A stretch of 32,000 nucleotides of DNA, from positions 60,001 to 92,000 of the forward strand of contig NZ_CP179200.1 of NCBI RefSeq assembly GCF_051201565.1, given 5' to 3'. A program made the translations under genes and the position numbers. The number at the start of each line of letters is the position of its first letter. Position 1 is the first letter of the stretch. Positions 4,062 through 25,289 of the stretch are shown here, one piece after another. The stretch is from Pseudothioglobus sp. nBUS_23 (GTDB taxonomy: Bacteria > Pseudomonadota > Gammaproteobacteria > PS1 > Pseudothioglobaceae). The notes beneath the pieces were generated by a model that did not search any database, was not told the origin of the DNA, and was given only the letters and a program-made list of their open reading frames with translations.

Positions 4062-4070
4062 ACGAGCTCT

Positions 4071-8701: not shown

Positions 8702-8778
8702 GGTTATGTAGCTCAGCTGGTTAGAGCACAGCATTCATAATGCTGGGGTCGGTGGTTCAAGTCCACCCATAACCACCA
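8702..8778 (+). tRNA. tRNA-Met (anticodon CAU), elongator type, with encoded CCA
   Basis: GGTTATGTAGCTCAGCTGGTTAGAGCACAGCATTCATAATGCTGGGGTCGGTGGTTCAAGTCCACCCATAACCACCA. It folds as a cloverleaf: a 7-bp acceptor stem GGTTATG/CATAACC, anticodon stem CAGCA/TGCTG and loop TTCATAA. It closely resembles E. coli metT-type tRNA. A lysidine-modified tRNA-Ile2 cannot be excluded from sequence alone. Confidence 0.85.
8733..8778 (+). repeat. attL core: the 3' 46 nt of the tRNA, repeated perfectly at 18604-18649
   Basis: attcataatgctggggtcggtggttcaagtccacccataaccacca is identical base for base at both positions. Confidence 0.85.
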
Positions 8779-8824
8779 TATCCCATAAGGCTTTCAGCCA
8801 TTTCACTTAAATCAAAATAATGCT

Positions 8825-8845
8825 CCAGTACACACTCAGTACACA
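8825..8845 (+). promoter_or_regulatory. Tandem CCAGTACACA / CTCAGTACACA repeat in the tRNA-proximal arm (candidate arm-type recombinase site)
   Basis: The same tandem motif, in the same orientation, lies immediately upstream of the integrase start at 18451-18471. Confidence 0.4.
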
Positions 8846-8990
8846 ATAGGACTAAAAAACACCCCTTTTCTACACCTCGCTTAAGTCCAAATAATTAGAT
8901 AAATAATAATAGTTAAATAAATAGAGACTAGTAACCGTTGGTTTGAAGTGTATATAACCGATGGTTTAGATAAATACTATGAAAAAAGTA

Positions 8991-9120
8991 CCATCCCTCG
9001 CATATATATACTGACTTTGAGGTACGGGGGGGGAGCCCCTCTCGACATCGGAGATAGATATATACACCCTCCCTCACACATCAAACGAAATTTGGACTTT
9101 AGTTCTAATTGACATATAAT
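8991..9120 (+). repeat. Intergenic cassette copy 1 (orphan; no + strand gene follows)
   Basis: ccatccctcgcatatatatactgactttgaggtacGGGGGGGGagcccctctcgacatcggagatagatatatacaccctccctcacacatcaaacgaaatttggactttagttctaattgacatata. It matches the copies at 11844, 18862, 20925, 22952 and 30654. Confidence 0.9.
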
Positions 9121-9161
9121 TTTAGTATGAATTTGACACCAGAAATGCTCTTTGTTATTTT

Positions 9162-9626
9162 TTAGCCGCGCATAATTTTTTGAATACGTGGTTTAATGGT
9201 GGTAGCCATAATTAGCCCAACAGTCAAGCCCAATGGCAGGGCTGCGGTAAAGGCAGATTTCCAAGCACTGAAGTAGACTGTCATATCAGCAATTCCAACG
9301 TTACTTAAGGTGGTCATAGTTACCATGACTGATTCCATCACAATACCCATCATGACACCAATTAACAAATTAGTTTGCAGCTTGGATAGATTCGGCCAAA
9401 GGCTGGTAACTAACTTTTCGAACAGAGTCATCATAATGATACCAACGGGTGCCATCACTAGCATAGATAGGGCAAAACTCTTTAACCATGCCAAGGCGAA
9501 ACTATCGCTCAAGCCAATATTCATGTAGGTCATTACCCCAGTTAGTGGACCACCAATAAACGTCATCATTGTTGCGATGATTGCTACTTTCTTCCATATT
9601 AGCGTTTTATTTGCACTTGTGTTCAT
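9162..9626 (-). CDS. Small integral membrane protein, DUF2798-like (two internal repeats)
   Basis: 154 aa with four predicted TM segments. The internal duplication (…NIGLSDSFALAWLKSF… / …NVGIADMTVYFSAWKSAF…) fits my memory of DUF2798. Confidence 0.5.
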   Translation of the reverse strand: MNTSANKTLIWKKVAIIATMMTFIGGPLTGVMTYMNIGLSDSFALAWLKSFALSMLVMAPVGIIMMTLFEKLVTSLWPNLSKLQTNLLIGVMMGIVMESVMVTMTTLSNVGIADMTVYFSAWKSAFTAALPLGLTVGLIMATTIKPRIQKIMRG

Positions 9627-9673
9627 AGTAAATCCTTAGATATTTAACGACTTATTTGATAAAAGACTTAGAT

Positions 9674-9705
9674 TGAAAAAGCCTTCCTTAAAGTAATGGA
9701 AGGCT
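9674..9705 (-). terminator. Rho-independent terminator of the DoxX gene
   Basis: On the minus strand: AGCCTTCC-attactttaa-GGAAGGCT followed by TTTTTC, about 15 nt after the DoxX stop. Confidence 0.6.
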
Positions 9706-9720
9706 AATAAAAAAAACTAA

Positions 9721-10086
9721 TTAAATCTTTGCAAAATCGCCTAACTGATCTCTATAAAAATATAGAATATAGGCAGCTAAAACCCCAAGCATGACAGGTG
9801 CAAATGCTCCAGGCATGCTTAACGCAATGTGAGTAATAAAACCTCCTATCATGGTGCATACAAGAAGTGCCGCTCCAAAAACTTGTTTATTTGGTAGCCA
9901 TATCAATACAACTGCAGTAACTTCGATTAAACCTGTTACATACCTGAACCATTGACCCCACCCGATCAGCTCATACATACCAACCATTTGCTCAGCACCT
10001 ATAATTTTGAAAGCGCCCGCACTTAAAAAAGCCAGTGACAAAAGAATTTTTACAAGCGGTATTAAATATTGATTTAGTTTATTCAT
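9721..10086 (-). CDS. DoxX-family membrane protein
   Basis: 121 aa with four TM segments. LSLAFLSAGAFKIIG...GWGQWFRYVTGLIEV is the typical DoxX layout. Confidence 0.7.
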   Translation of the reverse strand: MNKLNQYLIPLVKILLSLAFLSAGAFKIIGAEQMVGMYELIGWGQWFRYVTGLIEVTAVVLIWLPNKQVFGAALLVCTMIGGFITHIALSMPGAFAPVMLGVLAAYILYFYRDQLGDFAKI

Positions 10087-10153
10087 AATTTACTCCTATG
10101 ATTTATAGAAAAAACTCCCTAAAAAAAAGTCGTTTTATTTTTAATTAGCGCCT

Positions 10154-10417
10154 TTATTCAGCCAGTGATGTGATTTTTAATGAAGCGTGATTAACGCCAG
10201 CATTCTCTCTACTTTCAATCATATTAGGCTCTTTTAATTTCTTATCCTCGATTGAATTCATTTCGACAACTGTATATACATTACTTTCGTTGCCCTTTTC
10301 ATGGCCATAGGCTAAAACTTTAACGTTATTTTTTTGTCTCATAGCCTCATTAGATTCGAATGCTTTCTTCCAGACCTTGTAACCTTTAGTAACTTCAAAA
10401 TTTGATATTACTATCAT
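10154..10417 (-). CDS. Small cytoplasmic protein of unknown function (possibly DUF3764-like)
   Basis: 87 aa with an AAGGAG SD upstream. Its composition is consistent with a small alpha/beta protein. The family assignment is only a recollection. Confidence 0.45.
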   Translation of the reverse strand: MIVISNFEVTKGYKVWKKAFESNEAMRQKNNVKVLAYGHEKGNESNVYTVVEMNSIEDKKLKEPNMIESRENAGVNHASLKITSLAE

Positions 10418-10438
10418 TTTTCTCCTTTATTTTGAATA

Positions 10439-10461
10439 GCAGCTCCTTGAACAGGAGCTGC
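10439..10461 (-). other. Intercistronic 9-bp stem-loop (GCAGCTCCT-5 nt-AGGAGCTGC)
   Basis: A perfect inverted repeat between the small Cys-rich ORF and the 10154-10417 gene. No U-run follows it on the transcribed strand. Confidence 0.5.
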
Positions 10462-10474
10462 CTGTGAAAAGACT

Positions 10475-10624
10475 TTAATTTTCACTTTTTTCAAACATCG
10501 CCGCTTTGTCAGCATCAGTTTTTGCCGCATACTCTTCTTCAGTTAACATATGCCATCCAATACAATCTCCAGTAGGTGATCTACCGCAACCACATGTACC
10601 ATTTTCTTTTTTAACGTTATCCAT
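10475..10624 (-). CDS. 49-aa Cys-rich peptide (hypothetical)
   Basis: MDNVKKENGTCGCGRSPTGDCIGWHMLTEEEYAAKTDADKAAMFEKSEN*. It is below the ORF-track size cut-off and co-oriented with the neighbouring genes. The opposite-strand track ORF 10506-10688 looks spurious. Confidence 0.35.
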   Translation of the reverse strand: MDNVKKENGTCGCGRSPTGDCIGWHMLTEEEYAAKTDADKAAMFEKSEN

Positions 10625-10729
10625 CATTTTTTCCTTTGAATTGTTAGATTATTGCCAGCTTTTGACTTCAGTGCTGGCGACTGATTAAATAACGCCTCTG
10701 CAGATTATTAGCGTTTAGTCATTGAAATA

Positions 10730-10751
10730 AAATTATAATCATTTATAATTT
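10730..10751. promoter_or_regulatory. Perfect 9-bp inverted repeat AAATTATAA-TCAT-TTATAATTT in the divergent LysR promoter region (candidate LysR box)
   Basis: It lies about 40 nt upstream of the LysR start. LysR regulators bind T-N11-A-type dyads in their own divergent promoters. AT-rich DNA makes chance palindromes more likely. Confidence 0.35.
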
Positions 10752-10790
10752 GCAATAAAGTCACTATTAAACAAATTACTATTACATATT

Positions 10791-11666
10791 ATGAAACAAT
10801 ACTCTTTAATCGAATTAGAAACTTATCAGGCTGTTGTTGAAGCCGGAAGCTTTAACCTAGCTGCCGACAGATTGAGCACAAGCGCTGCAACTGTGAGTCG
10901 TCGCATAAGCACCCTAGAATCAGCTTTAGGTGTTAGATTACTGAATCGTACGACTAGAAATATAAATCTAACAGAAGCTGGTGAGCAATATCTTGATGAT
11001 GTTAAAAATATCTTAGAAAGCGTAGAGATCTCAGAAGAAAGGATTGGGGAAGGTAAAGCAGAAGCAAAGGGTGAATTACGAATTGCTGCTCCACTTAGTT
11101 TTGGCATAAAACACTTATCTCCAGTACTACCATCATTCATGAAGAGCCATCCAAATATAATCATCAACTTGAAACTAGAAGACAGCCAGACTGATCTTCA
11201 AGCTGAAGGAATAGATATAGCGCTTCGAGTTACTCAAAATATTAAGGATTCATCCCTTATTGCAACTCCCTTATGCTCAATTCCCATAGTAATTTGCGCC
11301 TCACCAGACTATATCAATAAACATGGCAAACCTAAATCTATAAATGATATTCAAAAGTATAATTTTCTTGGATATAGCTTAGCATCGAATAACCTTAAAA
11401 CTCGACTTGGTTCAAATTCTGATCCTCGAATTGGCTTTGTGGCAAATAATGGTGATGTCATAAGGGAGGCTGCAATTAATGGTTTTGGCATTACTGCACT
11501 TCCATTATTCTTGATTGAAGACGATTTAAAAAATGGAAAATTAGTAACAATAATCGACAATCAAGTTAAACCTGAAACACTATATGCCGTTAGATTGTCT
11601 CGAAGGTTTACCCCAACAAAGGTCAAAGTGATGGTTGATTATTTAAGAGATACCTTTAAAGACTAA
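10791..11666 (+). CDS. LysR-family transcriptional regulator
   Basis: 291 aa. N-terminal wHTH (FNLAADRLSTSAATVSRRISTLESALGVRLLNRTTRNINLTEAG) plus a LysR substrate-binding domain. Confidence 0.9.
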   Translation: MKQYSLIELETYQAVVEAGSFNLAADRLSTSAATVSRRISTLESALGVRLLNRTTRNINLTEAGEQYLDDVKNILESVEISEERIGEGKAEAKGELRIAAPLSFGIKHLSPVLPSFMKSHPNIIINLKLEDSQTDLQAEGIDIALRVTQNIKDSSLIATPLCSIPIVICASPDYINKHGKPKSINDIQKYNFLGYSLASNNLKTRLGSNSDPRIGFVANNGDVIREAAINGFGITALPLFLIEDDLKNGKLVTIIDNQVKPETLYAVRLSRRFTPTKVKVMVDYLRDTFKD

Positions 11667-11843
11667 AAAACATTCAAAAAATAAACTTCTCGAGCAATTA
11701 ATCGATAAATTATGGCATTACTAAACTGAGTAATTTCTTTGACTTGTTTGAGATTTAAATATGACACTTTTCGTACTCCTTTGATGATTAAAAAAAGGAT
11801 ATTACCAACCTGGGTAAATTCTATTTTGGTTCAATGCTTTTTT

Positions 11844-11953
11844 ATCCCTCGCATATATATACTGACTTTGAAGGTACAGGGGAGCCCCTCTCGACATCGG
11901 AGATAGATATATACACCCTCCCTCACACATCAAACGAAATTTGGACTTATAAT
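11844..11953 (+). repeat. Intergenic cassette copy 2, ending in TATAAT (11948-11953) 6 nt before the CoiA-like ATG
   Basis: atccctcgcatatatatactgactttgaaggtacaGGGGagcccctctcgacatcggagatagatatatacaccctccctcacacatcaaacgaaatttggactTATAAT. Confidence 0.9.
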
Positions 11954-11959
11954 CCTTTT

Positions 11960-13039
11960 ATGAGATTCGCACTTTCAAATAATGAGCGTATTGAACCTAC
12001 CAAAGGAGCAAAGGGGGTCTGTCCTAGTTGTGGTTCTGAACTAGTTGCTAAGTGTGGCGAAATCAAAAGACATTATTGGTCGCATAAGAAGAAGTGTGAT
12101 GACCATTGGTGGGAGAATGAAACAGAGTGGCATCGCAATTGGAAGAATAACTTTCCTAAAGAATGGCAAGAGATAATCCAAAGAGATGAGAGTGGTGAGA
12201 AACATATTGCCGATGTTAAAACGAGTTCGGGTTGGACAATTGAATTTCAACATTCACCAATTTCTAAAGAAGAGCGCGACTCAAGAGATTACTTTTACAA
12301 TAAGCTGATATGGGTGGTTGATGGAACAAGACGCAAGACTGATATTAAGCAGTTTGAAAGTTTAGTTCATCACGCACATCCCCTCATTTATCCTGAATTT
12401 CCCAAAGATTACAGGTTAATTAGAGAATGGGGCTCTAGTCAGTCATTAGTATTTGTTGATTTTGGAGCTGATGAGCTATGGTTAATTAATAACAATGATT
12501 GTATTAGTGCTTTTTCAAGAAATTCTTTTGTTGAAATGATGAATGATTCTCGCTCAGATGAGGTTAATATAAAACTACTAGAGCCAATTCAAAAACAAAT
12601 TGATGAAATAAAGGCTGAACAAGAAAAGAATAGAAGAGAGCAAGAAGAAAAAGATAGGATTAGGGAGCAAGAACTCATTGAAGAAGATTTAAGAATAAGA
12701 AAAAAATATAACATGAAGGATGATGAAGAGTGGTTTGAAGGGTCGCTCGGAATTAAAATATTTAAGCGTTATGGAGAAAAGATTGTATATAGAAGACCTA
12801 AGCCAAAAATCCCATATGTCATAGGAATTTGTAGAAATAGATTTCATTATTTTGACACCAAGGTTGCCTCATCAATTCTAAATAACTATGAAGAGGTTAT
12901 GAAACAATTAGACTACACCGATGAACAAATTGAAGATGAGTTTGATATTAATGTGATACCCAAAACCATAGATGTAAAGAACTGGACTGAATGGAAAAAT
13001 CTAATGGAGCAATTGAAACAGAAAATTGGTAAAAAATAA
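11960..13039 (+). CDS. CoiA-like nuclease-family protein with a long charged / coiled-coil C-terminal extension
   Basis: The start is moved to MRFALSNNERIEP, because the track ORF reads through the cassette. CPSCGSELVAKCGEIKRHYWSHKK, EWHRNWKNNFP, HIADVKT and TIEFQHSPIS...LIWVVDG match the CoiA-like (competence protein CoiA) pattern. Confidence 0.6.
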   Translation: MRFALSNNERIEPTKGAKGVCPSCGSELVAKCGEIKRHYWSHKKKCDDHWWENETEWHRNWKNNFPKEWQEIIQRDESGEKHIADVKTSSGWTIEFQHSPISKEERDSRDYFYNKLIWVVDGTRRKTDIKQFESLVHHAHPLIYPEFPKDYRLIREWGSSQSLVFVDFGADELWLINNNDCISAFSRNSFVEMMNDSRSDEVNIKLLEPIQKQIDEIKAEQEKNRREQEEKDRIREQELIEEDLRIRKKYNMKDDEEWFEGSLGIKIFKRYGEKIVYRRPKPKIPYVIGICRNRFHYFDTKVASSILNNYEEVMKQLDYTDEQIEDEFDINVIPKTIDVKNWTEWKNLMEQLKQKIGKK

Positions 13040-13040
13040 A

Positions 13041-13078
13041 AAACGAAATTTGGACTTTAGTTCAAGTTGATATACAAT
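13041..13078 (+). repeat. Partial cassette (3' part only): aaacgaaatttggactttagttcaagttgatatacaat
   Basis: It matches the 3' end of cassette copies 1, 4 and 7 and sits directly upstream of the small secreted-protein gene. Confidence 0.75.
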
Positions 13079-13084
13079 CCTAGT

Positions 13085-13342
13085 ATGAAGAAACTTCTAT
13101 TAACAATACTACTAACTTTCTCATCATTATCATTCGGTGCTGATGAGTATCAATATGAAGCTGTTGTAAATCCAAATGAAATGGGTGTTTATCTCATAGA
13201 CCAAGTTAATGGCAAGGTGAAATTCTGCCAAGCAGTTTCAGGAGAAGCCCAAATGCTTACAGGTTGTACTCCTTGGAGTGGAGAATATGGACTAACTCCA
13301 AATCCACTTCAGCAAGAACTTCTTGAAATGATGAACCAATAG
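13085..13342 (+). CDS. Small secreted protein (hypothetical)
   Basis: The start is moved to MKKLLLTILLTFSSLSFGA (signal peptide). The mature part is about 65 aa with two Cys. Confidence 0.5.
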   Translation: MKKLLLTILLTFSSLSFGADEYQYEAVVNPNEMGVYLIDQVNGKVKFCQAVSGEAQMLTGCTPWSGEYGLTPNPLQQELLEMMNQ

Positions 13343-13343
13343 T

Positions 13344-13520
13344 ATGAAATTAATCGCACTAATTATTGCTGGTTTAGGTGGAATGCTAGTTTGGTATGGT
13401 GGAGGTGGATTTGAAAATACTCAAGTGCCTCATTCCATTGGCATACAATATATGACGCTTGGAGGCGGTTTCTTATTTGGCGGACTTTTTCTGTACGCCT
13501 ATATTGATAAAAAGAAATAG
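13344..13520 (+). CDS. 58-aa two-TM Gly-rich membrane peptide (hypothetical)
   Basis: MKLIALIIAGLGGMLVWYGGGGFENTQVPHSIGIQYMTLGGGFLFGGLFLYAYIDKKK*. It starts 1 nt after the previous stop and is below the ORF-track cut-off. Confidence 0.3.
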   Translation: MKLIALIIAGLGGMLVWYGGGGFENTQVPHSIGIQYMTLGGGFLFGGLFLYAYIDKKK

Positions 13521-13654
13521 ATAAATAAAGGGCTACTGCTTGGTTACTAAGGACACTTTCCTAGTCGAGTAATACCATCACCCCACTAGCCAAATACGAG
13601 CCCCGTATAGTGGCCTAATTAGACCACTTTCCACAGGTTTCCATACATAGCAAA

Positions 13655-13837
13655 TCATCTATTCCTATCGATCATTTTTTTAATAATGAATTCGATTATT
13701 TTGTTCTCAGACCAACGAGAAGTTCTTTCAGATAATTTAATCTGCTTTGGGAATTTATCCTCTTTCATAAGTCTATAAATCGTAGCAGTACTGAGTAGTG
13801 TTATTTCCTTTACTTGTTTCAATGTGAGTAGTCTCAT
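13655..13837 (-). CDS. alpA: AlpA-family phage/island transcriptional regulator (Xis-like HTH)
   Basis: The start is moved to MRLLTLKQVKEITLLSTATIYRLMKEDKFPKQIKLSERTSRWSENKIIEFI, with an AGGAGA SD. This is the classic AlpA/HTH_17 pattern. Confidence 0.8.
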   Translation of the reverse strand: MRLLTLKQVKEITLLSTATIYRLMKEDKFPKQIKLSERTSRWSENKIIEFIIKKMIDRNR

Positions 13838-13916
13838 AGTTCTCCTTTTTGTTATGGAAAAAAATGGAAGAGTGTAAAGTAATAATCCTTTCATATGGGC
13901 GTTTGACGGCAATTCA

Positions 13917-13963
13917 CAGTACACTTTTCCAATACACAATAAAGTGTGTATCGAGTGTGTATT
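13917..13963. promoter_or_regulatory. Cluster of (G/A)TACAC(A) motifs in both orientations upstream of alpA
   Basis: cagtacac..aatacacaa..gtgtgtat..gtgtgtatt. The core is the same as in the tandem repeats at 8825-8845 and 18451-18471. Confidence 0.35.
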
Positions 13964-14076
13964 GAGTGGGGTACGGAAAATTTCCATTCAGCGTATCTTT
14001 AGCACCATGTCTTTCCAATGGCGGAAAGATAGGCGCTTCAAAAGAAGCATTTTAAAATCCCTATAAAGGAGATTAG

Positions 14077-14292
14077 ATGGAAAGATTAAAGACGTTGTTA
14101 GATACACACCAAGTAGCTGAGAAGTTTGGTATTGAGTCAAAGACCTTGGCAAATGCGAGAAGTACAGGAGTTGGAATTGGTTCGATTCCTTTCGTGAAGT
14201 TTGGGCAAAACGGAGCAGTCCGTTATAGAGAGTCCGATGTATTAGATTACATTGAGGCCAATACTTTTAAACACACAGGAGAAGTAAAGTAA
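14077..14292 (+). CDS. Excisionase/MerR-type helix-turn-helix DNA-binding protein
   Basis: 71 aa with an AAGGAG SD. LLDTHQVAEKFGIESKTLANARSTG...AVRYRESDVLDYIE fits the HTH_17-type pattern. Confidence 0.6.
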   Translation: MERLKTLLDTHQVAEKFGIESKTLANARSTGVGIGSIPFVKFGQNGAVRYRESDVLDYIEANTFKHTGEVK

Positions 14293-14606
14293 TGAGTAGT
14301 AATACAAAAAAACCCCCTCAGTCGGCTAGGACTCAGGGGGCTTACAGTAAAACTTTCAGCAAGAATGATACCATACTCAACGCCCTTGTTGAAGGCTCTC
14401 TAACGAGGTTTGACGCAGAGCAGTTAGGTGACCATTGTCTACCATCAACTATATCGGCTCTTTCAAATCAGCATGGTTTGGAATTTCCTCGAAGATGGAT
14501 TAAAGTTCCAAATCGCTTTGGTGGTGAGACTCTTTGTAAGGAGTACACAACTAGCGATGAAGACAAAATTTACATCAACAAGTACTTGGAGGTGTTGGAT
14601 GGCTAG
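14292..14606 (+). CDS. Island-associated winged-helix protein (HTH_39-like)
   Basis: 104 aa. TAATG overlap with the upstream gene. ILNALVEGSLTRFDAEQLGDHCLPSTISALSNQHGLEFPRRWIKVPNRFGGETLCKEY resembles the helix-turn-helix proteins that precede primases in integrative islands. Confidence 0.5.
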   Translation: MSSNTKKPPQSARTQGAYSKTFSKNDTILNALVEGSLTRFDAEQLGDHCLPSTISALSNQHGLEFPRRWIKVPNRFGGETLCKEYTTSDEDKIYINKYLEVLDG

Positions 14607-15741
14607 TATGAGTAGAGCAATGTTGGAGCGTGGCATAACGCCACCTTCCGCTTTTGTTTATGATGGTAAGATTAAAAGGTTCAAGAATGAGGGCGATACC
14701 AAAGCTAATAGTTGGTATGTTGGCTTTCAGGATGGAGACTTTCAGTCAGGTGCTTTTGGCTGTTGGAAGTTAGATATTCACGAGGACTTTTGTAATCGTG
14801 ATACATCGTCTTTCACTCCTGAAGAAAAGAAAGCCTTTGCCATAAAGCAAGAGGAAGTAAGACAGCTTAAAGCCAAAGAGAAAGAAGATAAACATCAACA
14901 GGCTGAGAGAGATGTCAATGAAAGATGGGCAAAAATCGATCAAGTTGATTCACATCAATATCTTTCAGATAAAGGTGTCAAGTCTTATGGCTTAAAGGTT
15001 GAAAAGGACAATTTGGTTGTTCCTATCTTTAATGCCGATGGAGAGTTGGTCAATCTTCAAACCATTTCACCAAGTGGTGGTAAATATTTTGCTAAAGGTG
15101 GAAAGATAGAAGGCTGTTTCTACTTGATTGGTGATGTTGATGAACATCTTATTATCGTAGAAGGAATGTCAACTGGAGCCAGTATCCACGAGGCTACTAA
15201 GTTGGCTGTGGTTGTTTCATTTAATGCGGGTAATCTTTTGCCTGTAGCTAAAGAAATGACTTCCTTATACCCTCATGCTTCAATCATTGTTGCGGGTGAT
15301 GATGACCAGTTCAATGATGTCAATACAGGTCTTATAAAAGCCTCTGAGACAGCGAAGCATGTTGGCGGATTTGTTTGTTTTCCTCACTTTGAAGGGTTAA
15401 ACAAGAGTCAAAGATTGACAGACTTTAACGACCTTCATCAAGAGCAAGGTTTGATGGAAGTTAAGAAGCAAATCTATAAGGCAATTCATAGTAACGCTAG
15501 AACACCACAACATGAATCTGTAATTGTCTATGGTAGTTTTTTCAAAGCCATGAAACATCTTGATGGCTCTGAATTAAGACTTGTGTTTGACGCTATGATG
15601 AACTACGGCTTGTATGAAAAACAATCTAAGTTGCCTGACAAACTTCAATCTTTATTTGAATTAATAAAGCCTCAGATTGATGCCAATATTAAAAGGCGCA
15701 TCAATTCTAAGAAAGGTGGAAGAAAGCCAAATAAAGAATAG
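14599..15741 (+). CDS. Phage/plasmid-type DNA primase (COG4643-like N-domain + Toprim), no helicase domain
   Basis: The start is moved to MASMSRAMLERGITPP, with GGAGG 6 nt upstream and an 8-nt overlap with the previous ORF. YDGKIKRFKNEGDTKANSWY...GAFGCWK is followed by Toprim motifs LIIVEGMSTGASIHEAT and IIVAGDDD. Confidence 0.78.
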   Translation: MASMSRAMLERGITPPSAFVYDGKIKRFKNEGDTKANSWYVGFQDGDFQSGAFGCWKLDIHEDFCNRDTSSFTPEEKKAFAIKQEEVRQLKAKEKEDKHQQAERDVNERWAKIDQVDSHQYLSDKGVKSYGLKVEKDNLVVPIFNADGELVNLQTISPSGGKYFAKGGKIEGCFYLIGDVDEHLIIVEGMSTGASIHEATKLAVVVSFNAGNLLPVAKEMTSLYPHASIIVAGDDDQFNDVNTGLIKASETAKHVGGFVCFPHFEGLNKSQRLTDFNDLHQEQGLMEVKKQIYKAIHSNARTPQHESVIVYGSFFKAMKHLDGSELRLVFDAMMNYGLYEKQSKLPDKLQSLFELIKPQIDANIKRRINSKKGGRKPNKE

Positions 15742-15746
15742 TCTAT

Positions 15747-15796
15747 AACCAACGGTTAGCTAATTGTTAAACCAACGGTTAGCTAACTGTTAAACC
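15747..15796 (+). repeat. Two and a bit tandem 23-bp units AACCAACGGTTAGCTAA(T/C)TGTTA
   Basis: It starts 6 nt after the primase stop. The unit core AAACCAACGGTTA is the reverse complement of TAACCGTTGGTTT, which is found in both island arms (8932-8944, 18803-18815). Confidence 0.85.
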
Positions 15797-15797
15797 T

Positions 15798-15849
15798 AAA
15801 GTAAAGGTAAAGGTTAAAGCAAAAGTAAAAGTAAAAGTAAAAGATAAAG
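15798..15849 (+). repeat. A-rich hexamer microsatellite, (GTAAAA)n-like
   Basis: aaagtaaaggtaaaggttaaagcaaaagtaaaagtaaaagtaaaagataaag. Confidence 0.85.
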
Positions 15850-15914
15850 TTTAGTAAATACCATAAAGAAATATTTGGTGTTTTATCTTGTTGTAATCTT
15901 GGTGTTTTCGGAGT

Positions 15915-16005
15915 CCATAAAAAGGGAGTTTAGTGACACCATAAAAAGGGGTTTTCGTACGCCATAAAAAAGGGAGTTTTCGGAGACCATAAAAAAAGGC
16001 CTATG
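15915..16005 (+). repeat. Four iteron-like direct repeats CCATAAAAA(A)GGG(A)GTTT spaced 23-25 bp (candidate replication origin)
   Basis: Repeat starts are at 15915, 15939, 15962 and 15987. They lie between the primase and the int operon and next to the A-rich tract. Confidence 0.55.
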
Positions 16006-17205
16006 TCATGGATATTTAAGGTGTCTCCTGTCCGTATTATTGTAGCCTTCTAACAAGTAGGTAACGACTTCTTCAATCACAGCATCTTGTCTCGTTGTCC
16101 TGTAATCTTTTGGATGTCCTTTGTAGTCAACATGGATGTAATGTTCAAGGTTAGCCCATTTGATTTGGTTACTCGATTCCTCTGTGTGGTATTCAGTAGG
16201 AATTGTGTTGACATGAAGCATTCTTACTAAATGACTATATGCTCCAGTTTCTTTAAGCCAAATCCATTTACCTTCAAGGTCACCATTGATACAATCTTTT
16301 TCAATAAGTTGGTCATATAACATCTTGGAAAACTCAGCCTTAAAGGGTGCCTCTTCAACATCTCTCAAGGCAGTATTTTCTTTAATATATCCTAAGCCTT
16401 TTGCCCACCCAATAAACTGCTCCTTGTCTATGTCGATAGGTACAACAATGTGATTATGAAGTTCGTTTTCCGACATATTAGAACGCTCTTGACGGCTGAG
16501 TTGTCTTTTTTTGGTTTTGAACTCTCTTTCAACCCACTTCCATTCATCATAGTCTCTACCACTTTCGCCTAGCCCACCTTTTTCTATGAACCCATCTTCA
16601 TCTTTAAAATTAGTGGCATTCATATCCCATTGCGCAATATATCTTTTTTCAATATCAGGACAGAGACCTAGAAGAATATAAAAACCTTCATGTTGATATA
16701 GGGTTTGATGTCTATCAAGAAGACTTAAATCAAAAGAGGCCTCTTTGAAAACTTTTAATAATCTTTCAGAAGTGCTCGTTCTCCTATCCATCCTTTGCCA
16801 GTTATCGATGTTGTAAATGTCTTCGATATATAAGGCTCGTTTATCTTTCTTTGGATTGATAAAGTGAGGGTTCTTTTTCTTGTGCTCAAAATCCCTCAAT
16901 CTTTCAGCAAGGGATGTAAATGAAGGCATATCATCATTCTCAAATTCTCTTGGGTCTTTGATTATTAAATCTTCTTTGACCCAACCATGGCTAATATAAA
17001 CAACTTCCCATGATTCTTGAGTTAAGTCCTTATGGGGTTCTAACTCAGTATCTAATTCAAGCAACTGCTCAAATAGAGGAACTTCATCGACACATATTTT
17101 ATGAAGTCTTTTTCTCTCTTTACGAGAGGCTTTGACCTGTGCCTCAAACTCCTTAATGAGTTCTTGTTTTCTGTCCTTTGCTTTTTGGGTGAACTGATAC
17201 TTCAT
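16006..17205 (-). CDS. 399-aa protein of unknown function, translationally coupled to the integrase
   Basis: The start is moved to MKYQFTQKAKDRK, whose ATG overlaps the integrase TGA (ATGA). I recognise no motif. It has a charged N-terminal helix and is Trp/His-rich. Confidence 0.6.
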   Translation of the reverse strand: MKYQFTQKAKDRKQELIKEFEAQVKASRKERKRLHKICVDEVPLFEQLLELDTELEPHKDLTQESWEVVYISHGWVKEDLIIKDPREFENDDMPSFTSLAERLRDFEHKKKNPHFINPKKDKRALYIEDIYNIDNWQRMDRRTSTSERLLKVFKEASFDLSLLDRHQTLYQHEGFYILLGLCPDIEKRYIAQWDMNATNFKDEDGFIEKGGLGESGRDYDEWKWVEREFKTKKRQLSRQERSNMSENELHNHIVVPIDIDKEQFIGWAKGLGYIKENTALRDVEEAPFKAEFSKMLYDQLIEKDCINGDLEGKWIWLKETGAYSHLVRMLHVNTIPTEYHTEESSNQIKWANLEHYIHVDYKGHPKDYRTTRQDAVIEEVVTYLLEGYNNTDRRHLKYP

Positions 17206-18440
17206 TTGATGTGACTCCATAGTTCTGCCTCGATCAAATTCATAGGTTCCCTGAGGTCTTCTAATTGAATGATTATGTAGCGCCCTGTAATGTCTTTTGG
17301 GTCTTTGTGATTGATGAGTTTCTTTAGGTTGTATGTTGAGAAAACAACTCTACTTGCTGTAGTTTCAAAAGTCCTTCTAAGGTCGTGTAAGTTGAAATAA
17401 CAACCCGCTAAATCTCTTGCTCTAGCCATTTGTCTTTTTTGTGGCGGTGACAAATGAGTGTTTGGTTTCTGACCTTGGAATACATATGGATTGTCAGAGC
17501 CATCTTTACGCCTATCGAGTATCTCTAATAAAGTTTTAGTCAATGGAAGGGCGTGTGTTTCGTGGTTCTTGGTATCTTCAATAACAAAAGAATTGTCTCT
17601 AAAGTCTATGTCTTCCCACTTGAGTTCTAATGCTTCATTTCTTCTTAATCCTGTAAACAAAATAAAGATAAACAAGTCTCTAACAACCTCGGCACTATTC
17701 TTCTTAACTGAGTTCTTCTCATGCTCAGGTAGTGACATAATTCCTTCATACCATTGCTTTAATTCGTAGTTATTAACTAGGCCTTGTCTAACCTTTTCTC
17801 TATTCCAAGACTTGTTATGAGAGATTCTTTGAACAGGATTGTGAATAAAGAGGGGTTCTCCTTTGCTATCTTCATATTGACCATGAGCATAATTAAACAA
17901 AGCCCTTAGAACTCTCATTGTAGTGTTTGCTCTTGTTGGTGATTCTTTGAACTTACCAAGTCCATAGGTGATGTCTCTATGTCTTTGCTCCACCATGTTG
18001 CGTGTAATATCTGCTATCGGTTTATGTTTCCAATCACCTAGATATATATTTAGAGCAGACCTATAGTTTTCAACTGTACTTTCCTCTATCTTAGTTCCTC
18101 GGCTTCTAATGTAATCATTGAAGACTTGTTGAAGGGTAATGCTTTGCTTAGAAACTAAATCACCTTTAACTTTATTTGGGTCAATGCCTTTATCGATATT
18201 AGAGAATGTTCCCTGTGCTTGTGTCCTAGCCTGTGGAATTGTCATTGAAGGATAGTAGCCTAGAGTGACATAAGAAGCGTTTTTCTTTCCCTTTAGTCTT
18301 TTGCGAACTATAAAAGCCTTAACCCCTAGATGGGTGACTCTTAACGATAAGCCTTTAACTTGTGTGTCACCGTAAGCAACTTGCCCATTGCTAGGTATTT
18401 CAATGTTGTCTAGTGCTTTGCGTGTAAAGTTAATCTTCAT
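17202..18440 (-). CDS. int: Tyrosine site-specific integrase, P4-type (N-terminal DUF4102 arm-binding domain)
   Basis: The start is moved to MKINFTRKALDNIEIPSNGQVAYGDTQVKGLSLRVTHLGVKAFIVRKR, the DUF4102 pattern. The C-terminal catalytic region has TGLRRNEALELKWEDID, HALPL and HDLRRTF. It is adjacent to the partial tRNA copy. Confidence 0.92.
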   Translation of the reverse strand: MKINFTRKALDNIEIPSNGQVAYGDTQVKGLSLRVTHLGVKAFIVRKRLKGKKNASYVTLGYYPSMTIPQARTQAQGTFSNIDKGIDPNKVKGDLVSKQSITLQQVFNDYIRSRGTKIEESTVENYRSALNIYLGDWKHKPIADITRNMVEQRHRDITYGLGKFKESPTRANTTMRVLRALFNYAHGQYEDSKGEPLFIHNPVQRISHNKSWNREKVRQGLVNNYELKQWYEGIMSLPEHEKNSVKKNSAEVVRDLFIFILFTGLRRNEALELKWEDIDFRDNSFVIEDTKNHETHALPLTKTLLEILDRRKDGSDNPYVFQGQKPNTHLSPPQKRQMARARDLAGCYFNLHDLRRTFETTASRVVFSTYNLKKLINHKDPKDITGRYIIIQLEDLREPMNLIEAELWSHIK

Positions 18441-18450
18441 GATACTAACT

Positions 18451-18471
18451 CCAGTACACATCCAGTACACA
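18451..18471 (+). promoter_or_regulatory. Tandem CCAGTACACA / TCCAGTACACA repeat 11-31 nt upstream of the int start (candidate arm-type / autoregulatory site)
   Basis: It matches 8825-8845 in the opposite arm. Two further direct repeats GGATGTNTATGGA lie at 18502-18514 and 18546-18558. Confidence 0.4.
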
Positions 18472-18603
18472 GATGTGGGTTATATTGAGTTATACTAAAA
18501 TGGATGTCTATGGAAGTGTTCATCTCTTTAAACCTATGTATAATAGGATGTTTATGGACATACCAGTATTATATAGGAAATAAAGGATAATAAAGTAAAT
18601 TAA

Positions 18604-18649
18604 ATTCATAATGCTGGGGTCGGTGGTTCAAGTCCACCCATAACCACCA
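18604..18649 (+). repeat. attR core: displaced copy of the tRNA-Met 3' half
   Basis: 46/46 identity with 8733-8778. There is no 5' half of a tRNA upstream. Confidence 0.85.
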
Positions 18650-18861
18650 TATCCCATAAGGCTTTAAGCGATTTCACTTAAATCTAAATATTAGACTGGT
18701 ACTCAACTGGTACTCAAAGAAACGATTTTCGATACCTTTTCTACACCTCGCTTAAGTCCAAATAATTAGATAAATAATAATAGTTAAATAACTAGAGACT
18801 AGTAACCGTTGGTTTGAGGTGTATATAACCGATGGTTTAGATAAATACTATGAAAAAAGTA

Positions 18862-18984
18862 CCATCCCTCGCATATATATACTGACTTTGAAGGTACGGG
18901 GGGAGCCCCTCTCGACATCGGAGATAGATATATACACCCTCCCTCACACATCAAACGAAATTTGGACTCTTTTTGAGCTATAAT
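18862..18984 (+). repeat. Intergenic cassette copy 3, ending in TATAAT (18979-18984), upstream of gene A
   Basis: It is part of the 234-bp block 18735-18968, which is near-identical to 8864-9098. Confidence 0.9.
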
Positions 18985-19017
18985 TTAGCCTTTCTAAATT
19001 TCTATTCACACCCCCTA

Positions 19018-20922
19018 ATGAAGAAAATTTTATTTATTTTTGTGCTGTCTTTGTATTCAATTCAAGGATTTGCATCATCATGCCCTGATGGCAGTGAGCC
19101 AATCAAGAGTGTTTCTGATGATGGAAGTTATTATGTTTTTAACTGTGTAAATAATAACGTTCTCTCAGGCAAACCCTACACGAATTTATCTGAAAACGAT
19201 GGTCCTTGGTCAGGTCCTATGATTGAGATAACGGAGAATACATTAATTAATGGTCCAACTCCAGGCAGGTATTCACCATTTTTGAAAGATACTGGTCGTC
19301 AACGAGGTGGACCCCAACATTGGACTGGAGATTTCAATAATGATGGCTACGTTGATTTCATTTATGGTGGAGCCGTTGATGATGCGAAATATAATTTAAT
19401 ATACTCAAACAGAAAAGGAATCAACAATGCTACAGACATCGATGATAATGACCCAGTAGGGCAATTCTATTCGTGTGGCAAGAAGGCTTGTATTACTCCA
19501 AATATGATGCCTGAATTGTTTCTTGGGCATGCTGATGGAATTTGGAAAAGAAGTTCTTATCTTCTTATCGATAAGCGCAAAGATGCAGGCATACGTGGTG
19601 GCAAGCCCGCTGTTGCTGACTTTAATGGTGACGGTATCCAAGACTTCTGGTTTTATGATGATAAAGCAGACGAGAGCGGCCACGCATCTTCTAACAAAGT
19701 TCGTTGGAGAGGCTTTCGTGACAGTTACTACTTGTCTCAATCTAATGGTACCTGGTTAGAAAGTTCTGATACACATCTAAACAAAGTCATTAATGATTTT
19801 GGCCATGGCGGTCAAGCAGGGGATATCAATGGTGACGGTTGGATAGATATGTTATCTACAACAGGTGGTAAACATGTCGATTGTTGGATAAATATTGGCG
19901 GCGGTGTAATGAAATACCGCAAATGTATCGATGGTGCGGGGGCATATATTGTTGAACTTGCTGATTTCGACGGCGATGGTGATTTAGACATGTACACTCA
20001 GCAACAAGAAAACGCAAGTCAACCTGGACACCCAAAGATATCCTGTAACGATGGTAATGGTTGGTTCCGTGTATGTAAAGATATGTCAGTATTCACTGAT
20101 GGAGATTACGATTGGGTTGGCTCAGTCGGTGCACGTTCATGGGACTTTGACAATGATGGTGACCAAGATATCATACTTATGCGTTTTAGAAACTTGTATG
20201 TTGGGGTTGCAATGGAGATTAAAGAAAATCTCGGTAATATGAACTTCAAGTCAGATTTGACTATTCTTTGGGACCCTATGACAAAAGAAGAGCATGCTGA
20301 GTTAAAAACTGAGATTAATTGGGCAAATAAGTACTTTACATTGAAACTACATGATGTAAATGATGATGGCTTAATGGATGTTATATTTTATGATGGCAAA
20401 TCTGGCAAGTATGACAATGCAATCTGGTTAAACAAAGGAAATCTCAAGTTTGAACTGATTAACAAGAACCAGCCAGACAATCCTATGGTACAGATCAAAA
20501 CTCAACAGACAAACTATAAAGAAACTGCAGGTGAAGAAATAAAACAATTAATTGAAAATTATAATGGTGAAGTGGTTAGAGTTGGTGAAGTGGCTAATGA
20601 AGAACAACCAAAAGAATTATCTTTTCTTGAATCACAAATCAAATTATTAACCGACCAAAGAAGATTACAGGTCTGTAGCGCCGTCTTTAGTGAGTTGTTT
20701 GGAGGTGAATACTACAAAAGAACAAATAAGGACACTTACTTTTTTGTCTCTCTTGATAGTAATGGTAAGGATTGTCATTATGAGTGGTCTACTAATGAGA
20801 TGACAGCATTCGAACAATGCGAAGAGAATACAAAGGCTATTGGAAAATGTACTATCTATGCCATTGGCGATACTGCTGTTTGGGGGAATCCCAAACTGTA
20901 TGAAAATTTAAGAAGTCAATAA
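19018..20922 (+). CDS. Secreted FG-GAP/VCBS-type beta-propeller protein with N-terminal Cys-loop tag and C-terminal four-Cys module (array gene A)
   Basis: The start is moved to MKKILFIFVLSLYSIQGFASSCPDGSEPIKSVSDDGSYYVFNC. Repeated Ca-binding-like blades: DFNNDGYVDF, DFNGDGIQDF, DINGDGWIDM, DFDGDGDLDM, DFDNDGDQDI, DVNDDGLMDV. The shared C-terminal module is at about 20632-20919. Confidence 0.75.
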   Translation: MKKILFIFVLSLYSIQGFASSCPDGSEPIKSVSDDGSYYVFNCVNNNVLSGKPYTNLSENDGPWSGPMIEITENTLINGPTPGRYSPFLKDTGRQRGGPQHWTGDFNNDGYVDFIYGGAVDDAKYNLIYSNRKGINNATDIDDNDPVGQFYSCGKKACITPNMMPELFLGHADGIWKRSSYLLIDKRKDAGIRGGKPAVADFNGDGIQDFWFYDDKADESGHASSNKVRWRGFRDSYYLSQSNGTWLESSDTHLNKVINDFGHGGQAGDINGDGWIDMLSTTGGKHVDCWINIGGGVMKYRKCIDGAGAYIVELADFDGDGDLDMYTQQQENASQPGHPKISCNDGNGWFRVCKDMSVFTDGDYDWVGSVGARSWDFDNDGDQDIILMRFRNLYVGVAMEIKENLGNMNFKSDLTILWDPMTKEEHAELKTEINWANKYFTLKLHDVNDDGLMDVIFYDGKSGKYDNAIWLNKGNLKFELINKNQPDNPMVQIKTQQTNYKETAGEEIKQLIENYNGEVVRVGEVANEEQPKELSFLESQIKLLTDQRRLQVCSAVFSELFGGEYYKRTNKDTYFFVSLDSNGKDCHYEWSTNEMTAFEQCEENTKAIGKCTIYAIGDTAVWGNPKLYENLRSQ

Positions 20923-20924
20923 TT

Positions 20925-21046
20925 ATTCCTTCGCATATATATACTGACTTTGAGGCACGGGGGGAGCCCCTCTCGACATCGGAGATAGATATATACACCC
21001 TCACTCACACATCAAACGAAATTTGGACTTTAGTCCAAGTTGACAT
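20925..21046 (+). repeat. Intergenic cassette copy 4 (TTGGACTTTAGTCCAA-GTTGACA subtype)
   Basis: attccttcgcatatatatactgactttgaggcacGGGGGGagcccctctcgacatcggagatagatatatacaccctcactcacacatcaaacgaaatttggactttagtccaagttgaca. Confidence 0.9.
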
Positions 21047-21112
21047 ATATCTAATTATTTAAATTTAGCTATGGTATTCTAAATCTAATCCCATTTAAAC
21101 CTTAATACTTCT

Positions 21113-22948
21113 ATGAAGAACCTACTTCTGATTTTAGTTTTATCACTTTTCTCAATTCAGAGTTTTGCGGGCTCGTGTCCTGATGGCAGTGAACCAGTCA
21201 AGAGTATTTCTGCGGATGGCACTTATTTTGTTTTCAATTGTGGCGATGGAAATGATAATGCTAATAAAAAAACAGCTAATCAAATTAATGAAAATATAAT
21301 TTCACCAATATCGCAAGGCACTTATACCCACAACAACAAGTATCACTCTGAACCTCCATTTTATTTTGCTTATGCTAAATTACTTGATACAAGAATGCGA
21401 ATAGCAAAAATTCAAGGAAAAGGTGAGGCTTTTCAAATAAGTAAACTTGATGGAATTCCTGAATTAAATGAATTGTTTAAAAAGAACAAAGTTTCAGAGT
21501 TTCCAAATAAAAAAAGGTGGACCGCAGAGCTTTATGGGGATTTTATGGCAATTGATGAAAAGGTAAAGTGGATTGCTCAAATAAATCCATCAGCTTTGGT
21601 TGAAGATTTCATCAGTATAGATTTAGATAATGATGGCGATAAAGATTGGCTTGTTTTCTTGTTTGGTTTCACACAAGCCATAAAAGATTCTTCAAGTGGG
21701 ATTTATAAAAACTGTGGCAGAGAGGGCTGTGTAAGTGGAGACGTGGTATTCCCAGTTGTTGCTTTTCTGACTGATGAAAATGGCAAGGCTCAAGGACCAA
21801 AAGATGCGGGTCAATTTTTTGTAAGTGGAAACGCTCCATATGTAAAAAATGCTCGCATGATACGTATTGCCGATTTTAATGGTGACAGTATTGATGATTT
21901 TGTTATTGCAGATGGTGGTTGGGATAACCGCGGTTATAGCTATAGACCGTCTTATCAAAGTCATCTATTTATGAGCACAGGCGACAAATTTAAGCATGTC
22001 GAATTTGGCATATTAGATAAAGCCCATGGAATAACTGCTGGTGATATAGATAATGACGGTGACCAGGACTTTATCATTTCCTATGTCGATAGGTCAGTCA
22101 TTCATATTAATGATGGAAAAGGTAATTTTAAAAATCAAGGCATGATTCAGATGGGATATCACACAAATTATCTTGAGCTTATAGACTTTGACTCCGATGG
22201 TTATCTAGATTTATTTATTGGGACAAATGGTTGTAAAAATGCTTCAAGTGTTCTCAGAAATAATGGAAGAGGCTCATTCTCACCATGGGATCAAATTAAA
22301 ATTCCTATAAAAGCTAGTAAGTCATCACAGGATTGTCAGTCTCGTACATGGAGTGGTGACTTTGGGATGGTTCATCATATTGTTGAGTATGATGATAAAT
22401 TTCTACTACTTACAAGTAATAACCATGTGGGCTGGGGCTTTACAACGCTTCAAAAGAATGGCAAGAATGTGAAAATAATGAATTCAGGCAAGTTTAAAAA
22501 AGAAAATGTTTCCGATGGAACTTTTCCTTATAAGTTGATGGTAAATAAAGACCAGGTTGTTATTTTTGATTTTAATTTCCATCCTTATTATTTTGAATTT
22601 AATCATGAGACTGGAGAACTTATTCAGCAGCTAAAAGAATCATCTTTTCATAAATCACAAATCGAATTATTAACTAATCAAAAAAAATTACAAGTCTGTG
22701 ATGCGGTCTTTAGTGAGTTTTTTGGAGGTGAATACAACAAAAGAACAAACAAAGATACTTACTTTTTTGTCTCTCTTGATAGTAATGGTAAGGATTGTCA
22801 TTATGAATGGTCTACCAATGAGATGACAGCATTCCAACAATGCGAAGAGAATACAAAGTCTAATGGAAAATGCACTATCTATGCCATTGGCGATACTTCT
22901 GTTTGGGGAAATCCCAATCTTTATAAGGAATTAACTGGAACAAAATAA
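21113..22948 (+). CDS. Secreted FG-GAP-repeat protein with the same N-tag and C-terminal four-Cys module (array gene B)
   Basis: MKNLLLILVLSLFSIQSFAGSCPDGSEPVKSISADGTYFVFNC. Blades: DLDNDGDKDW, DFNGDSIDDF, DIDNDGDQDF, DFDSDGYLDL. The C-terminal ~95 aa are near-identical to gene A, even at nucleotide level. Confidence 0.75.
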   Translation: MKNLLLILVLSLFSIQSFAGSCPDGSEPVKSISADGTYFVFNCGDGNDNANKKTANQINENIISPISQGTYTHNNKYHSEPPFYFAYAKLLDTRMRIAKIQGKGEAFQISKLDGIPELNELFKKNKVSEFPNKKRWTAELYGDFMAIDEKVKWIAQINPSALVEDFISIDLDNDGDKDWLVFLFGFTQAIKDSSSGIYKNCGREGCVSGDVVFPVVAFLTDENGKAQGPKDAGQFFVSGNAPYVKNARMIRIADFNGDSIDDFVIADGGWDNRGYSYRPSYQSHLFMSTGDKFKHVEFGILDKAHGITAGDIDNDGDQDFIISYVDRSVIHINDGKGNFKNQGMIQMGYHTNYLELIDFDSDGYLDLFIGTNGCKNASSVLRNNGRGSFSPWDQIKIPIKASKSSQDCQSRTWSGDFGMVHHIVEYDDKFLLLTSNNHVGWGFTTLQKNGKNVKIMNSGKFKKENVSDGTFPYKLMVNKDQVVIFDFNFHPYYFEFNHETGELIQQLKESSFHKSQIELLTNQKKLQVCDAVFSEFFGGEYNKRTNKDTYFFVSLDSNGKDCHYEWSTNEMTAFQQCEENTKSNGKCTIYAIGDTSVWGNPNLYKELTGTK

Positions 22949-22951
22949 AGA

Positions 22952-23075: not shown

Positions 23076-23081
23076 TCAATT

Positions 23082-25169: not shown

Positions 25170-25200
25170 CTTGCTAGCTAGCATAGCTTCTCATTAAATC

Positions 25201-25255: not shown

Positions 25256-25289
25256 TAAATTTTTATCTACCAATCCTCCTTTTTGTCTA

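Follow-up and report, generated by a model that had tools for sequence, protein, structure and literature searches.

Genomic islands that grow by repeated integration at a tRNA gene have been described in Prochlorococcus as tycheposons; the passages on island growth in bioRxiv 10.1101/2020.12.28.424599 present additive islands formed by serial tRNA integration, with partial tRNAs between the elements and degenerate remnants among them. In the arrangement usual for tRNA-targeting elements, the integrase gene adjoins the intact tRNA (the possible shapes are surveyed in PMC2951348). We describe a locus with the opposite polarity in a gammaproteobacterium, Pseudothioglobus sp. nBUS_23. The analysed stretch of 32,000 nucleotides (contig NZ_CP179200.1, positions 60,001 to 92,000), hereafter the window, contains a tRNA-Met gene, a 9.9-kb integrative element adjacent to it (island 1, 8733-18649) and, directly beyond, an arm of the same kind with a different specificity. 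We believe that two elements of one large family integrated here in series, each site-specifically and at the same tRNA-Met gene, and give this reading a probability of about 0.8.

Bacteria of the SUP05/Thioglobus clade are abundant marine sulfur oxidisers and heterotrophs. A full-text literature search on Thioglobus genomic islands with an integrase returned no description of such elements, so that a known process, the growth of islands at tRNA genes, is reported here for a host clade in which this search found no account of it. The tandem arrangement itself fits the existing picture of tRNA island growth; the points deserving attention are the swapping of arm specificity and an oriented repeat at cargo boundaries. 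The element family is very common in ocean metagenomes, and the tRNA-Met locus appears to be a main entry point for flexible genes, including transporters, regulators and large secreted proteins. As judged from sequence comparison, the family presents an unusually clear case of integrase specificity modules being swapped; it is a natural data set on arm recognition, which could yield a recognition code and assist the design of orthogonal integrases.

As far as the cited passages on tycheposons allow a comparison, the likeness is one of organisation. Newcomers push older elements inward, remnants and variable cargo are present, an inward-pointing integrase at one terminus is accompanied by a small replication module, the hosts are marine and streamlined, and tRNA-Met is among the targets. 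The layout agrees with the definition given in bioRxiv 10.1101/2020.12.28.424599 in these respects. In contrast to tycheposons, the integrase is of the P4 type (Arm-DNA-bind_3 plus Phage_integrase) and the host is a SUP05/Thioglobus gammaproteobacterium; the domain architecture suggests a lineage other than that of the tycheposon recombinases. The searched passages of that paper contain neither the term "arm-type" nor a mention of a co-oriented repeat at cargo boundaries.

With islands and satellites of the P4/CP4-57 type, the elements considered here share the integrase domain architecture, an AlpA-type regulator/excisionase, a Toprim primase and the 3' part of a tRNA as the target. Iteron-like sites beside the primase gene, with a second set elsewhere, resemble the ori/crr arrangement of P4. 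Unlike in that type, the integrase gene is tRNA-distal and lies beside the tRNA fragment. The location of arm-type sites immediately upstream of the integrase start codon is known for intS of KplE1/CPS-53 (PMC2951348); there, however, they are found at attL by the intact tRNA, and here at the tRNA-fragment end. Since the arm sites adjoin the integrase start, the promoter probably overlaps the binding sites of its own product, and by analogy autoregulation would be expected. Accretion of streptococcal integrative and conjugative elements with cis-mobilizable elements produces tandems of related elements which share att sites and some of which lack a recombination module. In contrast to them, no conjugation module is present here, and the stacked elements differ in arm specificity; therefore, co-excision by one integrase is not expected.

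Two further assignments were rejected. PHROGs recognised only the integrase, the excisionase/DNA-binding protein and the primase, with no capsid, packaging or helper-interference genes, and an alignment of the integrase against IMG/VR gave a single match (23% identical), with no relatives in viral contigs and no sign of virion packaging. Thus, a satellite lifestyle is unsupported, and the element is not considered a phage satellite similar to P4 or to phage-inducible chromosomal islands, which would be recognised by capsid, packaging or helper-interference genes or by virions. An integron is contradicted by the NCBIfam integron-integrase score (18.8 against a cut-off of 265) and by the lack of a conserved folded structure in the sites that bound the cargo.

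Island 1 and its junctions at tRNA-Met

The tRNA-Met(CAT) gene (8702-8778, + strand) was identified by ARAGORN and Rfam and is the sole tRNA called in the window. Its 3' half is duplicated perfectly, exactly as the preliminary description of this DNA had it: 8733-8778 and 18604-18649 (both +) coincide at 46 of 46 positions. The repeat begins at tRNA position 32, one base ahead of the anticodon loop (the anticodon is at position 35), and the repeated segment reads ATTCATAATGCTG...CCACCA; the 60 nt located 5' of each copy are unrelated (46% identity). A direct repeat of the 3' part of a tRNA with an element between its copies is the hallmark of a tRNA-targeting integrative element, in this case of the anticodon-loop sublocation. 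The region upstream of tRNA-Met has housekeeping functions, with purD, rnhB, rsmI, an ABC/FtsX pair and coaE. From the relatives of CoaE, the host belongs to the SUP05/Ca. Thioglobus clade; the closest match (92% identical) is in a single-cell genome.

Related loci from genomes and metagenomes were fetched for comparison and are numbered with the letter L where they need to be told apart. The attL copy of the crossover segment (8733-8778, +) is supplied by the element, which is evident from an identity step at the tRNA in other hosts. Six contigs of another host species match the window at 72-79% identity in coaE and 76-79% in the spacer preceding the tRNA, whereas the identity is 100% in the tRNA and 99.7-100% over 8779-9099. 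The cargo of island 1 is 99.6-100% identical in the five of these six contigs that reach it. The step at the tRNA means, therefore, that the left arm 8779-9099 travels with the element and is not chromosomal flank. The attR copy (18604-18649, +) is presumably the original half of the host tRNA. In L002 (1-7759), island 1 is found in a different host; the distal tRNA half there differs at two acceptor-stem positions and is followed by an unrelated flank with TetR, molybdopterin oxidoreductase, ferredoxin and luciferase-like genes. The acceptor-stem bases of the other host in this half are to be expected if the distal half is the host's own.

In a metagenomic contig (L252), 18649 is followed at once by 8779: the 872 nt that correspond to 18300-18649 and 8779-9300 align with one gap and no mismatches. 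This junction is the predicted attP, of the kind that the preliminary description had proposed to look for, and either an excised circle or a head-to-tail tandem would produce it. No empty attB was found for this host. We take island 1 to be intact and, on these sequence data, recently mobile.

The integrase gene (17202-18440, - strand, ATG at 18440) encodes a P4-type tyrosine integrase of 412 aa. It faces inward, with its ATG towards the distal att copy, and lies at the tRNA-distal end; the latter had been pointed out before as a reversal of the usual order, and it holds throughout the family. The C-terminal domain matches PF00589 (E=1.2e-18), and the N-terminal domain matches Arm-DNA-bind_3 (DUF4102, PF13356; E=2.3e-12, residues 16-102). 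Many Arg, His and Tyr positions are invariant in 17 integrases of the family, including R266, R267, H352, R355, H378 and Y388. In total, 1756 relatives were found, and the exact 412-aa protein is indexed in 123 collection blocks.

The integrated layout on the left is as follows: the tRNA 3' half, a leader of about 43 nt, two tandem arm-type sites of 10-11 nt, an optional iteron block, a dispersed repeat referred to as M1-core, and the cargo. Continuing to the right are a CoiA-like gene, AlpA/HTH (helix-turn-helix) genes, a primase gene with an iteron pair, a variable open reading frame, the inward P4-type integrase gene and two arm-type sites; about 130 nt separate the latter from the crossover segment at the end of the family layout.

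Arm-type sites and integrase classes

The similarity of the two regions following the tRNA halves (8779-9098 and 18650-18968) is composed of unequal parts. The preliminary description claimed about 16 identical nucleotides past the tRNA; they are indeed identical, but the similarity extends further than was claimed, with 39 of 43 positions shared between the leader of the island 1 P' arm (8779-8821, +) and 18650-18692. Next is a dissimilar segment of 42 nt (8822-8863 against 18693-18734; 50% identity), which had been estimated at about 50-60 nt. It is followed by a block (8864-9098 against 18735-18968) with two substitutions and three gap columns in two indels, a count that agrees with the earlier one. 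By segments, the identity is 127/129 (8864-8992 against 18735-18863) and 104/107, so that the two blocks are 98% identical direct repeats. The homology stops at 9098/18968, the 3' edge of the M1-core repeat. This repeat, which makes up the last ~105 nt of the homology (8993-9099), is dispersed and co-oriented and was overlooked in the preliminary description. The long homology had been called unusual there; it proves to be the family norm, with one third of it contributed by the dispersed repeat. The leader is conserved family-wide, past almost every tRNA-Met copy of the clade.

The dissimilar segment contains the arm-type sites. In island 1, the P' sites are CCAGTACACA/CTCAGTACACA (8825-8845, +), and the P sites are CCAGTACACA-T-CCAGTACACA (18451-18471, +), at a distance of 11-31 nt from the integrase ATG on its upstream side; that the first motif returns just upstream of the resident integrase gene had been correctly noticed. 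The common motif CAGTACACA occurs four times, always at the arm sites of island 1 and nowhere else in the window (0.09 occurrences expected). The second copy of the region has another tandem repeat, ACTGGTACTCA twice (18695-18716, +), and TGGTACTCA is found in the window only at 18697 and 18708. When IMG/VR was scanned for TGGTACTCA pairs, the 120 contigs returned were from unrelated phages and lacked proteins of the family; the pattern does not have the specificity needed for this purpose.

The assumption that such repeats behave as arm-type sites is borne out by four independent complete elements, where the repeat after the tRNA is the same as that upstream of the integrase gene. They are the window element with CAGTACACA; L022 with TGTGCTACA (integrase 58% identical); L041 of Ca. 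Ruthia with GGGCTACC (49%); and L166 with GGGTACACA (90%). Each fetched tRNA-Met copy of the Thioglobus clade is followed by the leader and, with the exception of L015, nearly always by a tandem 10-11-nt repeat of varying sequence; at least 12 repeat classes are found 3' of the tRNA-Met copies in the fetched loci.

The repeat class tracks the N-terminal arm-binding domain across about 70 integrases, whatever the divergence of the catalytic domain. For integrase pairs with 80-95% C-terminal identity, the identity over residues 1-105 is 83% within a class and 47% between classes; for pairs with 45-60% C-terminal identity, the respective values are 67% and 44%. Catalytic domains that are 97-99% identical are combined with N-terminal domains only 47-66% identical and with differing sites of 9-11 nt. 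In particular, the window integrase and that of L168 (TGGTACTCA class) are 99% identical over residues 106-412 and 47% identical over residues 1-105. Together with the junction data given above, these comparisons establish the mobility of the element, the structure of its junctions and the covariation of the arms with the integrase N-terminus. The role of the N-terminal domain in arm binding is stated in general form in PMC2951348; by analogy, the integrases considered here would bind the repeats of their own class.

Circularisation brings the N-terminal coding region, P arm, crossover segment and P' arm together in one continuous stretch of about 0.6 kb; thus, one recombination patch could swap the specificity. 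In L191 (reverse-complemented), the P' side carries CAGTACAC repeats of the CAGTACACA class, and the P side carries GGGCTACC repeats with an integrase of the matching class (122-141 and 7068-7087). It is probably a recombinant unable to excise in the normal way.

The proposed second element and rival explanations

The region from 18650 begins with the P' arm of a second element (18650-18969, +), which consists of the leader (18650-18692), arm sites (18695-18716), the iteron block (18735-18863) and the M1-core repeat (18864-18969). An arm of its own class directly past an internal att copy is the sign of tandem, accreted elements. It is followed by a co-oriented array of at least seven secreted-protein genes (19018-32000, +; FG-GAP, lyase and unknown proteins) that runs to the end of the window: 19018-20922, 21113-22948, 23082-25169, 25290-27236, 27371-28789, 28827-30650 and 30806 onward. 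Core repeats lie between them at 21014, 23043, 25223, 27290 and 30744. The array is probably cargo or island material of the second element.

We presume the following course of events. Island 1 would have recombined in or beside the anticodon loop, thereby giving its own tRNA 3' half and its P' arm (8779-9099) to the left junction and displacing the original tRNA half of the host to 18604. Before island 1 arrived, the sequence from 18650 onward would already have been there as the P' arm of a family member that had integrated earlier, which would account for the ~320 bp match; only the arm-type sites would differ because the elements belong to different specificity classes (CAGTACACA and TGGTACTCA), each of which would be recognised by its own type of integrase N-terminal domain. 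As for the secreted proteins, the array of their genes would be the cargo of the earlier element or island material left behind. The order of arrival of the two elements is the one we infer.

Comparative data agree with this account. Integrases of the TGGTACTCA class, with TGGTACTCA twice in their own P arm, are present in 11 loci (L168-171, L194, L205, L208, L211, L212, L215 and L216). The reverse stacking is observed in L169: a TGGTACTCA element, a tRNA half, and then a CAGTACACA arm with the block. In about 40 loci with enough readable flank, the attR tRNA half is always followed by another P' arm, usually of another class; therefore, stacking is the rule at this tRNA. In L166, a complete element of 9.6 kb whose arms match, the cargo past the block and the M1-core repeat consists of two intact secreted-protein genes (599 and 783 aa). 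The tandem reading proposed in the preliminary description is thus upheld as concerns the own-class arm at 18650, the cognate integrases elsewhere and the cargo of L166; the second integrase and the third att copy expected by it are not seen up to 32000.

This absence and several related facts count against our reading. Neither an integrase gene nor a TGGTACTCA P arm is present in the 13.4 kb from 18650 to 32000, and a third tRNA half is lacking there too. In the single-cell amplified genome AG-319-D09, a TGGTACTCA arm follows the full tRNA, with no integrase, P arm or att in 14 kb; L013, L015 and L018 lack an integrase, a TGGTACTCA P arm and a further att copy within 10 kb. Moreover, L018 has a CAGTACACA arm and block straight before a different secreted-protein array, without island 1; therefore, an arm can become separated from the sequence next to it, and recombination of the shared blocks is one way in which this could happen. 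The arms of L191 are mismatched, and L023 has no integrase. Finally, the attP junction in L252 could originate from a head-to-tail tandem instead of a circle. In L023 (780-9857), the full tRNA and a tRNA half are 9 kb apart, with an arm repeat past the tRNA but without a homologue of the integrase in the interval, which marks it as a decayed element. Considering such integrase-less and hybrid relatives (L023 and L191), the second element may be a remnant as well. We are slightly inclined to regard it as an integrase-less or very long remnant, which is somewhat more likely than an intact element of ordinary size; that it is intact, with its integrase beyond 32000, is conceivable though not the case we favour.

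The same facts suggest a different explanation, which we consider rather unlikely but worthy of discussion. The TGGTACTCA arm (18650-18734) could be a scar left by a visitor whose body was deleted by recombination between the ~235-bp blocks or the M1-core repeats, the array being older island or chromosomal material that a TGGTACTCA-class element never carried. The necessary substrate is available, since the two blocks are 98% identical direct repeats, and loci of the expected shape are observed: island-1-type arms and block before a different array with no integrase in 10 kb (L018), and the hybrid L191, which combines a CAGTACACA P' arm with a GGGCTACC P arm and integrase. The assembly cycle of L005 passes through both blocks, and homologues of the secreted proteins occur at loci without the core or att (L243). 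On the other hand, L166 holds such genes inside an element with matching arms, and the array genes of the window are separated by the same co-oriented core that bounds cargo within elements.

Two simpler explanations concern the homology itself, and both seem to us highly improbable. If 8779-9098 were ancestral flank that a single duplication or capture, similar to specialised transduction, had copied, the homology would be silent on a second element; this outcome was named in advance as one that would refute the tandem. Sequences of the left arm and block do occur past a full tRNA with no island 1 in view (L012 and L018), and capture of flanking DNA by excising elements is proposed in the cited passages of bioRxiv 10.1101/2020.12.28.424599. 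However, copies of this region that are 99.7-100% identical reside in hosts with a 72-79% identical flank, and the step is at the tRNA, which largely refutes the idea; besides, the region contains arm repeats matching the integrase-proximal ones and iterons matching those at the primase side. Neither does it seem plausible that a dispersed intergenic repeat or promoter happened to lie past both att copies. The last ~105 nt are such a repeat, present nine times in the window and 107 times in the fetched loci, but the window has just two copies of the leader (8779-8821) and two of the 129-nt iteron block, and the order of leader, arm, block and M1-core is kept 3' of tRNA-Met copies in many genomes. 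We therefore retain serial integration of two related elements as the explanation of the locus.

The arm region past the distal tRNA half has its own variants. In L003 (239-1152), as well as in L004, L005, L006, L008 and L009, a gene similar to ornithine/aspartate carbamoyltransferase lies between the arm repeats and the distal-arm block; it starts 11 nt past the arm repeat, and its place corresponds to window position 18723/18737. The contig L005 (= L249) is circularly permuted with a 288-nt terminal overlap and contains, in order, the block, island 1, the tRNA half, the distal arm, the ornithine carbamoyltransferase gene and the block. We do not treat it as a true circle but as an assembly-graph cycle through two near-identical blocks; the same shape is also expected of the product of block-block recombination.

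Dispersed repeat, cargo and other genes

The M1-core repeat (first copy 8993-9099, +) includes an invariant 14-nt core, AAACGAAATTTGGA (9083-9096 in this copy), with a conserved C-rich flank, CCTCCCTCACACATC, to its left. The core occurs nine times in the window, always on the + strand (0.07 occurrences expected), starting at 9083, 11932, 13041, 18953, 21014, 23043, 25223, 27290 and 30744. In about 1 Mb of related loci, all 107 copies are oriented from the tRNA to the integrase. The repeat precedes almost every cargo gene and separates cargo genes from one another.

A structured RNA was considered and rejected: M1-core has no Rfam match, and RNAalifold on 20 copies gave five pairs with no compensatory change (-2.45 kcal/mol). 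Nor is the core a fixed -35 box, since it lies 1, 12 or 17 nt from a -10-like box, depending on the right-flank class; the core is therefore not simply a -35 element. The most economical reading of the sequence pattern is a conserved protein-binding or regulatory site, which may also serve as an anchor for homologous exchange of cargo. It is tempting to go further and propose that the ~30-nt site CCTCCCTCACACATC-AAACGAAATTTGGA is dedicated to cassette exchange and that, at the same time, the family is split into at least 12 orthogonal classes by the swap of one module; we consider this combination improbable. If true, these elements would possess a second, integron-like recombination system for cargo shuffling, and the swapped module (the integrase N-terminus, P arm, core and P' arm) would let several elements stack without cross-excision. 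In L007 (reverse-complemented, 2527-4135), the DUF2798-LysR cargo has given way to a MatE transporter gene, which lies between direct repeats of M1-core with the first ~80 nt of the CoiA-like gene; in this exchange, at least, the breakpoint was not exactly at the core. The start of cargo genes is 6-7 nt past a TATAAT/TACAAT-like box without a Shine-Dalgarno sequence (21040-21115, 23057-23085, 25237-25292, 30758-30808 and many loci), which suggests leaderless transcripts.

The block part outside the dispersed repeat (8864-8992, +) carries two iteron-like sites, AACCGWTGGTT, spaced by 23 nt (AACCGTTGGTT/AACCGATGGTT at 8933 and 8956). An inverted iteron-like pair, AACCAACGGTT twice (15747-15781, - strand), is located 6 nt past the primase stop. 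Such pairs are present in the block and beside the primase gene across the family, in many relatives. The pair by the primase gene is the putative replication origin, and the pair in the block would be the second iteron set.

The cargo slot of island 1 (9162-11666) contains a DUF2798 gene (9162-9626, -), a DoxX-like gene (9721-10086, -), an 87-aa open reading frame (10154-10417, -) and a LysR regulator gene (10791-11666, +), the DUF2798, DoxX-like and LysR genes being assigned by Pfam; in other copies of the island, it contains MatE or other genes. After it comes an M1-core repeat (11844-11948, +) and a gene of a CoiA-like predicted nuclease (11960-13039, +; weak CoiA_N match). This gene is at the boundary of cargo and backbone in many family members. 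A 17-nt core is duplicated around it (11932-11948 and 13041-13057), and it looks inserted into a repeat like that at 8993-9131.

The conserved module (13067-15741), also supported by gene calls on identical metagenome copies, includes a 91-aa open reading frame (13067-13342, +), an AlpA-type excisionase/regulator (13655-13837, -), an HTH_17 open reading frame of 71 aa (14077-14292, +), a 104-aa open reading frame (14292-14606, +) and a Toprim/DUF6291 primase (14599-15741, +), where the AlpA, HTH_17 and primase assignments are from Pfam and PHROGs. A 404-aa open reading frame without a family match (16006-17220, -) overlaps the 3' end of the integrase gene. This slot beside the integrase gene is variable: L162, L164 and L168-170 have a protein only 23-25% identical there, despite 85-100% identical integrase and primase. 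Searches of Pfam, PHROGs, NCBIfam and PDB with the CoiA-like protein and the 404-aa, 91-aa and 104-aa products gave only the weak CoiA_N match.

Look-ups of exact proteins returned nothing for CoaE with the GTG start, for the 607-aa array protein and for the first array protein; CoaE with the ATG start has an exact match only in a 2.7-kb contig that ends in the tRNA. As concerns homologues of the last window gene (30806 onward), P0145 has recJ and housekeeping genes as neighbours, and neither the core nor att is present there; P0186 is found in phage-like contigs. Contigs L244-L247, which look like phage genomes, are 57-62 kb long and carry a 5'-3' exonuclease gene, many small co-oriented open reading frames and radical-SAM genes; the gene at 10001-11161 encodes a 386-aa protein 76% identical to the partial product of the last window gene.

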